Assembly (NCBI GenBank): GCA_021513715.1
Contig: CP084167.1
Span: 1,568,001-1,632,000, forward strand
Length of the DNA: 64,000 bases
Source of the DNA: Candidatus Heimdallarchaeum endolithica
Lineage (GTDB): Archaea; Asgardarchaeota; Heimdallarchaeia; Heimdallarchaeales; Heimdallarchaeaceae
Direction: 5' to 3'
The notes below the pieces were generated by a model, which was given only the letters and a program-made list of their open reading frames with translations, did not search any database and was not told the origin of the DNA. Of this stretch, positions 525-34,673 are shown piece by piece. The stretch's first letter is position 1; every line of letters starts with the position of its first letter. Both the position numbers and the translations under genes were made by a program.

Positions 525-783
525 TCTTTCTATGCCAAATTACTAAAAAAGATTATAAACAAACTGATTTAAGTCAAAATAACGAGATATTTATTCATTG
601 TAAAACCTCACTCAAGAAATGGTGAAGTAAAAAAAATGGGCATTAGTAGAAGAAGAAATTAAAAGAAGAGATCTAGATTACCAAGTGCAGCTTACGAAAA
701 AAAGAAGGCATGCTTCTATTTTTTACGTAATTTACAGCTGTTGAGGAAGAAGGAGGAAAAAGAGAAGAGAGGAAGGAGAGGGG

Positions 784-791
784 TTTTTATA
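784..791 (+). promoter_or_regulatory. Candidate TATA box for tnpB
   Basis: TTTTTATA is the main T-rich island in a purine-rich leader, about 60 nt before the ATG. Confidence 0.35.
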
Positions 792-853
792 GGGAAAAAA
801 AGTAAAATAAAAAGAGAAGAAGAAAAAATAAAACAGAAAGAGGAAGGAAAAAA

Positions 854-2314
854 ATGGTGGAGGACGTCGTCAAAACCTTGAAAGTGAGAATAAAGAAGGA
901 GGTATTGACGACGAGGAAGAAGGAAAGGCTAAGGCGAATAACGGGGAGAGACACGAGGATAATAGAGAAGTATGTGAGAATAATACATCATAACAGAAGA
1001 AAAATATGTACTAAAACTAAAAAAGGGAAAATAAGAGTGCATAGAGGAAAATTAGATGAACTGACACTAACTACTTCAAAAGTTAAAGAAGAAGAGAGAA
1101 GAACAACTGTTCCTCACGATCTGAAGAAAATGTTCCCTTATTGTTCTCACAATGAATTCCAAGAGTGTAGAGATATAGCCGTACAATTATATGAACAAGG
1201 GTATAGACCCAGTCCTACTCGTCCTCCAATAAAGAGAGCAAGAAGACAATTAATTAACAAAAAGAGGTTCATTCTCGTTCATCTGCCAAAAGAGAAGAAT
1301 AACACTCTCACTCGTTGGTGGGTGGGGATAAGAGACTCGTTAGATACGTGGAAAAGAAACACTCCTTATCATCAGAAACTATGGTTACCTTTAGAGATGA
1401 GCACTTTCCACCAGAAGGAATTGAAGAAAGGGAGAATAAAAAGTCTAGAACTAAGATATAGACATTCTACACGTGAGTGGTGGGTATATTTCCAACTGAG
1501 AGTTCTTCCTCCTTCTTTTTATCTCACAAGTCAAGGAGATAATTCTTCTTCTCTTCCCCCAGCTGTGCTGGGAATAGATCTAGGTATAAACATTCTTGCT
1601 ACAGGAGTGTTACTGACCCCTAAAAAGAAGTTAACAAACAAAGAGATAAAGTTTTGGTATACCAAACAGTGGAATAGAGTCAATCATAGATATAAACTTA
1701 AACTTTCCCGTCTTCAGAGGAAAGGGGATTTAAATGACCAGTCGGGTAAAAAACACCAACTTTACCGTTTTCTCGGTCTTCTCCGAAGAAGATATAGAAA
1801 CGTTAAACAAGCATATATTCACCAATTTATAAACGATGTTGTGCAGACGATAGAGACCTATGCACGAAGGTATGACCTATTCGTCGTTGTAGGTTACCCT
1901 AAACACATTCGAGAGGAGAAAGAAAAAGGAAAAGGTAAAAGTAGTCGTAAGTTTCGTAGAAAACTTCACCAGTGGAATTTTTTTCTTATTCTTGCTCTTC
2001 TCCGTCGGGCATTGATATTAAGCGGTTTTGAACCTCACCGAATATTAACGATAGAGGAAAAAGGGACATCTTCTCACTGTGCTCGTTGTGGGAGGAAAGT
2101 TATCCGTCCAGTAAGAGGTTTAGTGCATTGCCCCTCTTGCGATTACACTTTCCACTCTGACCTCACAGGAGCAATGAATATCGCTCGTAAGTTCCTTGGT
2201 TCTCTTTTTCGTCCTCGAGGAACTACTATTACTGATTACCTCACTGGTTATAGATACAGTTCTACCCATTTCACCGTTTGTCGAGGGCTCAGCCATTGGT
2301 TGCAGCCCCAGTAG
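854..2314 (+). CDS. tnpB: TnpB-family RNA-guided endonuclease (486 aa), rearranged RuvC type
   Basis: RuvC-I GIDLG, RuvC-II VVVGYP, alternative Glu in IEEKGTSSHC, CxxC...CxxC zinc finger, RuvC-III HSDLTGAMNI. Confidence 0.92.
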   Translation: MVEDVVKTLKVRIKKEVLTTRKKERLRRITGRDTRIIEKYVRIIHHNRRKICTKTKKGKIRVHRGKLDELTLTTSKVKEEERRTTVPHDLKKMFPYCSHNEFQECRDIAVQLYEQGYRPSPTRPPIKRARRQLINKKRFILVHLPKEKNNTLTRWWVGIRDSLDTWKRNTPYHQKLWLPLEMSTFHQKELKKGRIKSLELRYRHSTREWWVYFQLRVLPPSFYLTSQGDNSSSLPPAVLGIDLGINILATGVLLTPKKKLTNKEIKFWYTKQWNRVNHRYKLKLSRLQRKGDLNDQSGKKHQLYRFLGLLRRRYRNVKQAYIHQFINDVVQTIETYARRYDLFVVVGYPKHIREEKEKGKGKSSRKFRRKLHQWNFFLILALLRRALILSGFEPHRILTIEEKGTSSHCARCGRKVIRPVRGLVHCPSCDYTFHSDLTGAMNIARKFLGSLFRPRGTTITDYLTGYRYSSTHFTVCRGLSHWLQPQ

Positions 2315-2540
2315 ACAAAAAGGAAAGCACTAATTCTCTCCTCTTGTGTTAGAGTTAGTTCTTTCTTTTTTGTCTCTCGTGGAGTGAAGAAAAGAGTTTT
2401 TAGTTCTTTTCTTCTTTATGATTCCCACGATTCGTGTATGCTGTCTGTCTCAACCCCTTCATAGCATTGTATGGCTTGGTTGAGTTCAAGAGATTAAACT
2501 TTTACTTATTTTTCTCTTGCAAGACTGAGTGCGAAAAACT
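2315..2540 (+). ncRNA. Putative omegaRNA/reRNA scaffold downstream of tnpB
   Basis: Sits at the element right end. Several stems: CGTGG..CCACG, CTCAACC(2449-2455)/GGTTGAG(2478-2484), CAAGAGA/TCTCTTG. Boundaries uncertain. Confidence 0.55.
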
Positions 2541-31840: not shown

Positions 31841-32350
31841 ATGATGCTTATGAAACTCAGTGAATATACGTACAATGGGTATGATTATAAAGTAAAATAT
31901 AGACATCTTGACGACATTTATTATTATAATAACTTTGATGTTGAGGATACTTGGGATGCTTATGGATATGATCAATATACTGATACTAACCTGGTTTGGC
32001 ATCATTATACCCCTAGCGAAATAAATGATTTAGAACACGACGTAAAGGTTCGAAAAATTGCTAATATGATAGCAATTGGTGCTTTGGGCATAATCTTAGC
32101 AGCCTTATTAGCCCCTGCTTTTCCTATTTCTGCTGTACTCGTTACCATTGGGTTCAGTATACTCGAGGTTCTCATCTCAGAACAATATGACCAACTAGAA
32201 GAATTTGTAGAAAATATTAAAGCAGAGAGAGGTGATGGATGGAGCGTGTATAAAATTAAGGGAGATGACGCCTATTTTGTACCAGGTAAAGAATTCTGGA
32301 AAAATCCAATAAATTCCCCAAAATACATTAAATGTGCAAATATTGAGTAA
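31841..32350 (+). CDS. Hypothetical protein with hydrophobic hairpin, probably a 5'-truncated remnant
   Basis: Starts right after a MITE-end motif; the upstream frame looks shifted. Confidence 0.45.
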   Translation: MMLMKLSEYTYNGYDYKVKYRHLDDIYYYNNFDVEDTWDAYGYDQYTDTNLVWHHYTPSEINDLEHDVKVRKIANMIAIGALGIILAALLAPAFPISAVLVTIGFSILEVLISEQYDQLEEFVENIKAERGDGWSVYKIKGDDAYFVPGKEFWKNPINSPKYIKCANIE

Positions 32351-32760
32351 CCATAACTTTTTATCTTTTTCACTTAAAGAAATAAATTATGTGAGAATAA
32401 CTCATGAAGTCAATAATTAAAAAAACCAGTATATATATTAAAAAATTGTTTCAAACAATTGATGTCCCTCAAGGTAAAATAAGAAGTCTTAAGAAACCTA
32501 TACTTAACAAATGGTACCATCACTTAATGAGAGTAATTATTATTTATTTGATAGCAGCTATTGTGATCTTTCCTGTTTACTATGGAATAAAAAATGTTGA
32601 TAATTACCAATATGATAAAAATAGAACATCACCACCAAAATTGATATATTCTTTGAATTTAATGGATTATGCAAATGTACCAAAATATGAATGATTTAGT
32701 GGAGATATTATTTTGCAATTTGACTGCGATAATGACTCTATTAATGAGATTATAACTTCG

Positions 32761-33381
32761 ATCATCATAAGATCCAAAAATTACTTCTAATTTGTTGTCA
32801 TTATTTAAATCACCAACAACTGGAGGATAAACAGTCCAAAACGTTGCATTAAACTCCCAGAGGATCGAGTTTGAAAGACTATTCAACGCGTAAATGGTGT
32901 TGAAATTTGAAACGGCAATTATTTCCTTTATACCATCGTTATTCACATCAGCTATAGCTGGAGGATTGCTAAAGATATGACCATAAATTGTATTTTCTAT
33001 AATCTCGTTTGAAGACCATAAAAAATCGCCATTAGACGCGTTATAAATTCTAATATGGCCATAATCTGTACTGGTCAAAACAATCTCATACTTTCCATCT
33101 CCTTCTATATCTGTCAGAATGTAATAATACCTGAAATGTGACACATAATATTTTTTCCACAGAATTGAACCATTATTTACATTTAATGCACATAATCCTT
33201 CGTTTATCCCATTTTCACTATAGTTAATTATGAGTTCTGGAATACCATCGCTATTACTATCCAATATGGATGGTGGATACACTTGTGTTTTTGTTTTGAA
33301 AGTCCAAAGAATAGAACCTTCTAGCGGATCTAATGCGAGCACAATTGTTTCTCTTTTTCTTCCATCTTTGCTAGTTGTCAT
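32761..33381 (-). other. Inverted 621-bp internal segment of the propeller gene
   Basis: Bounded by AT at 32761-32762 and 33380-33381. Exactly 207 codons, in frame with both flanks when flipped. Confidence 0.85.
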
Positions 33382-33760
33382 GAGTTGAAATTTTACGTAA
33401 TTTCTTCAGGACTCTCCCCAACCAATCAACAAACTTAGCGAAAGTTGTGAAGACTGGATTAAGAGAACATGAAAGACACAGTCTTAATTAAGTTCTCTAA
33501 GGGGTTCATCTCCTTATCCCGGGCACTCATAACTCCCAAAGGGAAGACCGGGTGTCGTAGGAGTGAAACCTACGTCTTTAAGCATATAGCTCAAGACACT
33601 AGATAAATTAGAATTAAATATATAAAGATAGCTGAAAAGTTGTGACACTCCCTAATATCGTGTATGTATTCTTTATTTTTGCAAATGTGTTTCAGGTTGT
33701 TATTGGTCTGATAACTCCACAAACTAAAAATTTAGTTTATTACGTAAAAAAGTATCTCAT
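33380..33760. mobile_element. Non-coding ~380-bp element with the same AT/TTACGTAA ends as the TnpB element
   Basis: TTACGTAA at 33393-33400 and 33740-33747, each 11 nt from AT. Right end TTACGTAAAAAAGTA is identical to 2541-2555. Confidence 0.85.
33404..33599 (-). ncRNA. Putative structured ncRNA inside the non-coding element
   Basis: GC-enriched run of hairpins; TTTATATA box on the minus strand at 33626-33619. Strand is inferred. Confidence 0.55.
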
Positions 33761-34673
33761 GCAATAGATGGAAATTCAGGAAGCCGTTTATGGTGTTTTT
33801 ATGCTGAAAATATATACTCCTCACCCACGATAGGAGACTTCGATGGGGATAAAAGATTAGATGTGGTGATAAAAACAGAAGAAAAAATTCATGCAATAAA
33901 AGGAAATAATGGTAAATCATTATGGTCAATTCCACTAGATGCTTATTTAATCAGCGCATCAGTACCTATTTTTATAGTAGACGTGGACGAGAAGAAAGAT
34001 ATGGAAATAGTCACTTTAGAAGATAAAAAATCGACAAATGATACTTTTCTTAACATTTATGACTTTGAATCTGAAAAATACATTCATTCATATTGGAATC
34101 CTTTTGGAGGGGATACAGGAAGAACAAACAGCTTGGTGGAAGTAGATAGAGATAATGATGGTTTATCCAATAAATACGAAAAATATATTGGAACAAATTA
34201 TAATGAAAAAGATACAGACAAAGATAAACTACCAGACTGGTACGAGCACATATGGACAAAAACTGACCCAACAATAGAAGATACAGATAAAAATGGAATC
34301 ACAGACAAAGAAGAAGACCTAGATGGAGACAAACTGACAAACTATGAAGAACTAAAAAAAGGAACAAACCCACTAAAAAAAGATACAGACAAAGATCTAA
34401 TAAAAGACAATAGAGACCCAAATCCACTATACCCAGAAGGATGGATATATTATAGTGCCTCTCTTATAATTTTCAGCTTCATTACAGTAAAGATTATTTT
34501 ACGTAAAAAAAGAAAGAGAAAAGGAAATACTACTCCGTATTTTGTTTGCAAATATTGTGGTCATTCTTCAAAAGAGGAAGATATTAGATACTGCCCAAAA
34601 TGTGGAAAAAAGTAACTAACAGTTTCTAAAAAAAAGCATGCCTAAACTTTTTTTCCTTGATTTTTTATCCTTA

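Follow-up and report, generated by a model that had tools for sequence, protein, structure and literature searches.

Insertion sequences of the IS607 type (IS607, IS1535, ISC1926, ISXfa1, CboIStron) have a 2-bp core that is present in the target as well as at each end, with no further duplication (PMC6188088; PMC10711439; 10.1101/2023.11.20.567912). Their serine transposases use this core and bind subterminal motifs, and both imperfect inverted repeats and short direct motifs occur in the ends (PMC6188088). In elements of the IS200/IS605 type the left flank is the target-adjacent motif (TAM) of TnpB. It differs from the right-end motif, which keeps the filled site uncut (PMC10055086). Two elements sharing features with both groups were found in a 64,000-bp stretch (the window, positions 1,568,001-1,632,000) of the closed 3.33-Mb genome of Candidatus Heimdallarchaeum endolithica. 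Element 1 encodes a TnpB nuclease and element 2 is a gene-less miniature. Both were probably mobilised as non-autonomous members of an IS607-like family of Heimdallarchaeia. The main comparison genome was that of the closed congener Ca. Heimdallarchaeum aukensis PM71 (G001).

Element 1 and its host gene have the following features.
710-2561, plus strand: TnpB-only element of subfamily A; length 1852 bp with both AT cores counted; six full genomic copies with 85-100% identity
709-735, plus strand: left junction and end, comprising host C, AT core 710-711, G, spacer, T-run and TTACGTAA at 723-730
854-2314, plus strand: tnpB, 486 amino acids, Pfam PF07282; RuvC D242, alternative Glu402 and D436
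2315-2561, plus strand: predicted omegaRNA scaffold that stops at the right end; fold z = -4.7
2541-2562, plus strand: right end, comprising TTACGTAA at 2541-2548, A-run, spacer, AT core 2560-2561 and host G
561-3362, plus strand: host YegS/diacylglycerol-kinase gene split by element 1; Pfam PF00781 and PF19279
TnpB is the sole gene within element 1. Removal of the element with one AT restored the frame of the kinase gene, as an earlier note on this DNA had stated, and the H. aukensis ortholog is unbroken and empty at this site. The host gene also has a stop upstream of the insertion.

Element 2 lies in the opposite orientation beside a rearranged host segment.
33380-33760, minus strand: 381-bp omegaRNA-only miniature of subfamily M, left end 33760, right end 33380; 16 full copies and two variants
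33525-33530, minus strand: ATGAGT partner of the terminal ACTCAT (33380-33385); pairing kept in 19-20 of 20 aligned sequences
32764-33381, no strand assigned: inverted 614-bp host segment between AT cores 32764-32765 and 33380-33381, from comparison with H. aukensis
The reverse complement of element 2 aligned with 352-bp miniatures and with the last tnpB codons and 3' region of relatives. The last tnpB codons lie near 33589-33598 and are followed by the omegaRNA scaffold on the minus strand. Owing to this alignment the element is read on the minus strand, where its left end is followed by a tnpB remnant, the omegaRNA and the right end, and by the same comparison it derives by deletion from a tnpB element and retains the predicted omegaRNA. 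The two interiors, previously described as unrelated, are therefore not so at the family level, as element 2 represents the 3' end and omegaRNA of a sister tnpB element. The end previously called left is functionally its right end. With subfamily M oriented in this way the left flank is C in 38 of the 39 elements of the window genome that were scored for flanks and targets, which confirms the orientation independently. The single exception is a 1-nt boundary slip. The 9-mer TCGTGTATG common to both elements is a chance match; 71% of random 301-bp windows have such a 9-mer in common with element 1.

The element 2 locus was only partly as predicted. Un-inverting the 614-bp segment and excising 381 bp gave a 513-codon open frame, but an extra in-frame deletion of 156 bp relative to H. 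aukensis had not been foreseen. All breakpoints of the inversion and deletion lie at AT. The far inversion breakpoint (32764-32765) is without any element end.

All four ends of the two elements were as originally described, with TTACGTAA at 723-730, 2541-2548, 33393-33400 and 33740-33747, each 11 nt from AT, and with AT cores at 710-711, 2560-2561, 33380-33381 and 33759-33760. This 8-mer occurs eight times in the window against 0.69 expected. There are 87 copies genome-wide, similar to like palindromes, hence the 8-mer alone is not enriched. The signal comes from its fixed place in dozens of repeated ends and not from abundance.

The predicted further paired copies were sought in the genome and approximately 44 full elements with a common end plan were found. 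This plan consists of AT, usually G, four to six variable bases, a T-run and an inverted subterminal motif, the imperfect inverted motifs lying approximately 7-20 bp from the AT core. The tnpB-carrying elements were grouped into subfamilies A, B, D, C and E (6, 6, 2, 3 and 1 full copies, respectively) and the gene-less miniatures into M and N (18 and 8). Subfamilies A, B and D carry the TnpB lineage of element 1, C a 445-aa TnpB and E a 414-aa TnpB, and the three lineages are approximately 26% identical to one another. The subterminal motif is TTACGTAA in A and M, TTTGCGAA in B, TTGTACAA in C, D and N, and TTCCGAA in E. It is TTTCCCCA in relatives. In f5, like f2 another Heimdallarchaeia family with such ends (the host family of the window genome is f1), it is TTTGTC-N-GACAA. 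Genomes of f5 carry up to 60 AT-core ends. The 8-mer proposed as the mark of the family thus marks only a subfamily; at least five different subterminal motifs occur within the common plan. A de novo scan for further AT-bounded inverted-repeat elements returned only the known ones and noise, and the end patterns were absent from viral contigs or at chance level.

Copies of M and N are up to 98-99.7% identical, and H. aukensis copies occupy sites that are empty or rearranged in the window genome. Movement therefore took place after the species split. Miniatures of unrelated subfamilies and host families are all 340-381 bp long, suggesting that excision, or the omegaRNA unit, has a lower size limit.

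AT flanks every scored element on both sides, and empty sites in H. aukensis retained a single AT, in line with the earlier expectation. One empty target is G-AT-A (L021), and in subfamilies C and N the right end finishes in GAT while the left flank is CAT. These observations exclude a duplication of CAT (3 bp) or CATG (4 bp) and limit the core to 2 bp. Targets were CATG in 30 of 39 elements compared to 1.9% of genomic AT sites, and G was present at +1 in 31 of 39. Target information was confined to positions -2 to +1. A palindromic core followed by G at +1 is compatible with a symmetric dimeric enzyme. Targets with only three to four bases in common argue against an RNA-guided target choice of the IS110/IS1111 type.

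The bases at -2 and -1 are family-specific and unlike the element's own right end. The left flank is V-C-AT where the right end is TCAT, TCAT where the right end is TGAT, and TGAT for E. T at -2 was found in 1 of 30 A, B, D and M sites compared to 9 of 10 C and N sites (Fisher p 4e-7), and in 1 of 24 sites in f5. From the sequences, these flanks appear to match the expectation for a TnpB TAM that spares the filled site, and the host flank GCAT left of element 1 is its predicted TAM. The resemblance of TGAT, TCAT and VCAT to IS605 TAMs is also what would be expected from peel-and-paste transposition by an HUH/Y1 enzyme, as in IS200/IS605, with the left-flank motif as cleavage site and the terminal AT as part of the right end. 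A single-AT empty site is equally expected from that route (PMC10055086). It is nevertheless very improbable here. Y1 was absent from closed H. aukensis and from 25 genomes of genus g4, and the only Y1 tnpA of the window genome, which has classical IS605 hairpin ends, was hit at its 5' end by a miniature (C1:925,509-925,883, L124). The ends of A and M could form a weak AT-rich hairpin, and those of B and of relatives are direct motifs. The inversions and the bias for G at +1 require double-strand, symmetric chemistry.

Internal truncations of the elements gave further information on the exchange. CAT or ATG was present in the last five matched bases at 9 of 24 internal truncation boundaries (9 of the 13 sharp ones) compared to 6.5% expected, with host DNA and no element end beyond (p ~1e-5 with 24 as denominator). 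The scoring of internal breakpoints was done partly by eye. A four-strand exchange across a symmetric 2-bp core would yield these joints and the inversion in the window as its reciprocal products. Joining of the donor flank to the target is not a reaction of DDE or Cas1 integrases, and Y1 enzymes act on single strands via hairpins. Host-to-internal AT junctions without an element end thus speak for a conservative exchange of 2 bp as in IS607 rather than for DDE or Y1 chemistry. Such joints could alternatively arise from extra copies by homologous recombination followed by precise excision, but scarless excision would be needed there too. A side observation is an internal 185-bp tnpB fragment at C1:139,099-139,283, which has CATG on both sides and no element end.

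Junctions without element ends, together with the excess of CATG targets, could also come from a nuclease that cuts CATG leaving AT overhangs, followed by ligation that shuffles fragments, elements included. This was considered the least probable explanation, and only marginally credible. Whole subfamilies show GATG or TGAT junctions, and the conserved subterminal motifs imply end recognition.

The symmetric ends and palindromic preferred target would also suit cut-and-paste by a DDE enzyme (IS630/ISL2-like) or a Cas1-type enzyme, with a 2-bp AT duplication and imperfect terminal inverted repeats. TnpB has been found with DDE transposases and with aCas1 in inverted-repeat elements (PMC10691335), and element 1 encodes a relative of the aCas1-associated TnpBs. 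However, no DDE_3 or DDE_Tnp_4 match was found in five genomes, DDE enzymes do not produce host-to-internal junctions that lack an element end, and positions 2-8 of the left and right ends are not complementary. A 996-bp DDE element with CATG in its ends was rejected, as its repeat starts with AAGCATG and its duplication is 8-9 bp. The lineage of the TnpB suggested aCas1 as the mover; this was rejected, as aCas1 was not found in f1 (0 of 28 genomes) and aCas1 elements have ends of another kind and lie at fixed tRNA, rRNA or mvhD sites. Movement by a DDE or Cas1-type enzyme is therefore improbable.

The inspection for a mover gene covered approximately 45 tnpB loci and approximately 40 miniatures bearing AT-core ends. 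Only two PF00239 matches were found in the window genome, both without an N-terminal helix-turn-helix and far under the NF033518 cut-off, and the same was true of H. aukensis. Two paralogous small serine recombinases, both conserved chromosomal genes, are encoded at C1:316,728-317,450 (L003) and 405,348-406,097 (L004), each with a Resolvase domain, a short recombinase-type C-terminus and intact catalytic motifs. They are the sole in-genome candidates, and a tentative case at best can be made for them as the mover. One of them lies in an operon behind a small GTPase, and the catalytic motif of that copy is lost in one lineage. Extra copies of these recombinases were rejected: they lie outside elements, with no tnpB nearby among the matches listed, and no such recombinase was found in viral contigs. 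The IS110 DEDD transposase was not found in the window genome or in H. aukensis. The single tyrosine recombinase lies in a virus-like region beside an IS481 copy and is probably the HeimV1 integrase. Also set aside were the autonomous IS607 elements of relatives, whose ends are unrelated, the IS110 loci of f5, which are without AT-core ends, and a 456-aa gene at 2,006,472-2,008,205, which is a conserved host gene rather than a transposase.

Several results weigh against an IS607-like family moved by a serine recombinase. None of the inspected copies encodes its own recombinase, and there is no room in them for a second gene. IS607 TnpA was not found in the closed window genome. The small serine recombinases were present in 28 of 30 f1 genomes, in 0 of 22 in f5 and in none in f2, and did not turn up in the other Heimdallarchaeia searched; the end plan is abundant in f5 despite this confinement to f1, and no Resolvase match at all was returned for two element-bearing f5 assemblies of 84 and 89% completeness. 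Absent from f2 and f5 where AT-core ends occur, these enzymes cannot be the universal mover. Subterminal motifs vary among subfamilies within one genome, which is hard to explain with one strict DNA-binding domain.

In a rival explanation the conservative AT exchange is carried out by a non-serine enzyme, either an unrecognised recombinase or a host enzyme making 2-nt staggered breaks, common to Heimdallarchaeia. AT-core ends occur in f1, f2 and f5, no known transposase family follows this distribution, every inspected element is without a mover as expected of host supply, and three unrelated TnpB lineages took up the same ends. There is no candidate gene for such an enzyme, and since drafts often lose mobile genes, the missing mover is explained equally by an IS607-type TnpA that was lost or is episomal. 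This explanation was judged unlikely. A TnpA may have dropped out of draft assemblies, and a mover gene that is episomal or was lost recently is possible. A wider version is an open mobile platform in which AT-core ends are ridden by any TnpB or guide RNA, with no autonomous element, and are moved by a host or unrecognised, near-unspecific recombinase that also scrambles the chromosome at CATG. This is possible, though the balance is against it. A serine recombinase remains the most likely chemistry, with about an even chance of being correct.

The earlier proposal of a recombinase-mobilised, non-autonomous family was supported in its multiple copies, its 2-nt AT core, its conservative recombinase-like exchange (empty sites and internal breaks), its RNA-guided cargo and the supply of the enzyme in trans, but no autonomous copy was found. 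In the mechanism proposed for this IS607-like family, a recombinase supplied in trans would bind the subterminal motifs and the element would leave as a double-stranded circle via exchange over the AT core. The circle would integrate at N-AT-R targets, mostly CATG. One-ended reactions would produce neighbouring deletions and inversions. TnpB and its omegaRNA, with the right flank as guide, would cut the emptied site beside the TAM, and homologous repair would restore the element. The TAM would be V-C-AT for A, B, D and M, TCAT for C and N, and TGAT for E. Miniatures would use TnpB in trans.

The TnpB of element 1 has Gly in place of the canonical RuvC-II Glu, with Glu402 before the zinc finger as an alternative. 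D242, E402, D436 and four Cys residues were invariant in 12 homologs, and the nuclease triad and the zinc finger are intact. TnpBs with an alternative RuvC-II Glu were already described (PMC10691335). The nearest outside relatives are aCas1-associated TnpBs of Thorarchaeia.

In each family the hexamer that closes the right end pairs with a second hexamer inside the element, and the two co-vary among A/B, M, E, f5 and an IS607 outgroup. The pairs are ATGATT:AATCAT, ATGAGT:ACTCAT, GTGGTT:AACCAT and GTGACT:AGTCAT, with GGTTA:TAACC in the IS607 outgroup. In element 1 ATGATT (2418-2423) can pair with the terminal AATCAT (2556-2561). The partner lies at -144 to -151 in all A and B copies and, as an ATGAGT-type hexamer, at -140 to -151 in all M copies. 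TnpB omegaRNAs have a scaffold-end pseudoknot (10.1101/2023.11.20.567912), and the terminal-internal pairing matches this pseudoknot in the predicted omegaRNA. RNAalifold across families gave little covariation beyond the terminal pairing.

Compared to IS607, the elements are alike in their subterminal imperfect inverted repeats and short motifs, the favoured G at +1, and a tnpB with an omegaRNA that has a pseudoknot and stops at the right end. One of the cargo lineages, E, is sister to IS607 TnpBs. It forms a clade with 100/100 support, next to elements that finish in ATAACC, one of them with an IS607 TnpA; end types on the TnpB tree were read by eye as automatic labels proved unreliable. The elements differ from IS607 in that every scored core is AT, a palindrome, and not GG as in most IS607 members, the motifs are equidistant from both ends, and TnpA is lacking in every element and in both closed genomes. 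The ends of autonomous IS607s from the same archaeal family are unrelated. The elements thus behave as non-autonomous IS607 derivatives but fall outside IS607 itself on TnpA and core.

IS1341-type tnpB-only and PATE-like IS200/IS605 derivatives are alike in having non-autonomous tnpB-only or gene-less forms moved in trans. They are also alike in that the left flank, here a predicted TAM, is distinct from the right-end motif, and in the tnpB and omegaRNA at the right end (PMC10055086). The present ends have inverted motifs instead of Y1 hairpins and AT at both junctions, and Y1 is absent from most hosts. In aCas1-TnpB elements (Cas1H-Asgard groups, PMC10691335) the TnpB is of the same lineage as that of element 1, with 32-36% identity, common N-terminal motifs and the alternative catalytic Glu, but those elements have an aCas1 gene of 1400-1900 aa, fixed tRNA, rRNA or gene sites, and different ends. 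IS1111/IS110 elements share a 2-nt core and, in IS1111, subterminal inverted repeats. The non-coding part here is however a TnpB omegaRNA and not a bridge RNA, and there is no DEDD transposase. The cognate transposase and true terminal inverted repeats of IS630/ISL2 DDE elements were not found. The elements are not IS200/IS605, IS110 or aCas1 elements.

A number of other features were observed. A degenerate right-end fragment of an M-type element lies downstream of a tRNA.
5089-5153, plus strand: degenerate right-end fragment of an M-type element
4905-4976, minus strand: tRNA gene adjoining this fragment
A tRNA was the sole match in an Rfam scan. On contig 8 of G148 a 31-bp solo remnant (L477:6501-6531) has AT on both sides, its left and right ends sharing one subterminal palindrome, and similar overlaps of left and right ends occur elsewhere in G148 and in G137. 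The 456-aa host gene mentioned above (C1:2,006,472-2,008,205, L420) has no Pfam match and is flanked by a left end of type A and the remnant of a right end of type N, possibly as a composite element. The autonomous IS607s of f1 (L097-L108, L394-L409) apparently have a non-GG core, with the left end after CCGT or CTGT and the right end GCGT or GTGT. Genomes of family f11 (L185-L200) contain aCas1 and divergent tnpB elements at the start of an mvhD-like gene, at the 16S rRNA 3' end and at tRNA genes, and one of these aCas1 elements is bordered on both sides by a 22-bp repeat. More than 30 near-identical copies of the 996-bp DDE element are present genome-wide (e.g., C1:44,615-45,610), with AAGCATGTCC terminal repeats and 8-9-bp duplications. 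ISH3-like, IS6-like and IS481-like families are also present, each with its own miniatures. The DDE families of the genome have ends of their own.

The Heimdallarchaeum genome paper counted transposase families, with TnpB and inverted repeats unmentioned (PMC8813620), and a 2024 survey gave aloposons as the sole earlier non-viral integrated elements of Asgard archaea (PMC11529989). Literature searches, with many subscription papers and ISfinder lying outside them, returned no description of AT-core ends. Many Fanzor elements have this layout of TnpB between inverted-repeat ends. The present elements represent an apparently undescribed type of insertion sequence in the closest archaeal relatives of eukaryotes, in which a Fanzor-like architecture arose at least three times. 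Their family-specific flanks predict TAMs for three compact nucleases. Some of the disrupted genes and rearrangements that separate the two Heimdallarchaeum genomes are explained by AT-core elements. Should the mover be a recombinase of the host or of a new kind, with integration at AT and scarless excision, this would be a new kind of host-parasite link and a possible integration tool.

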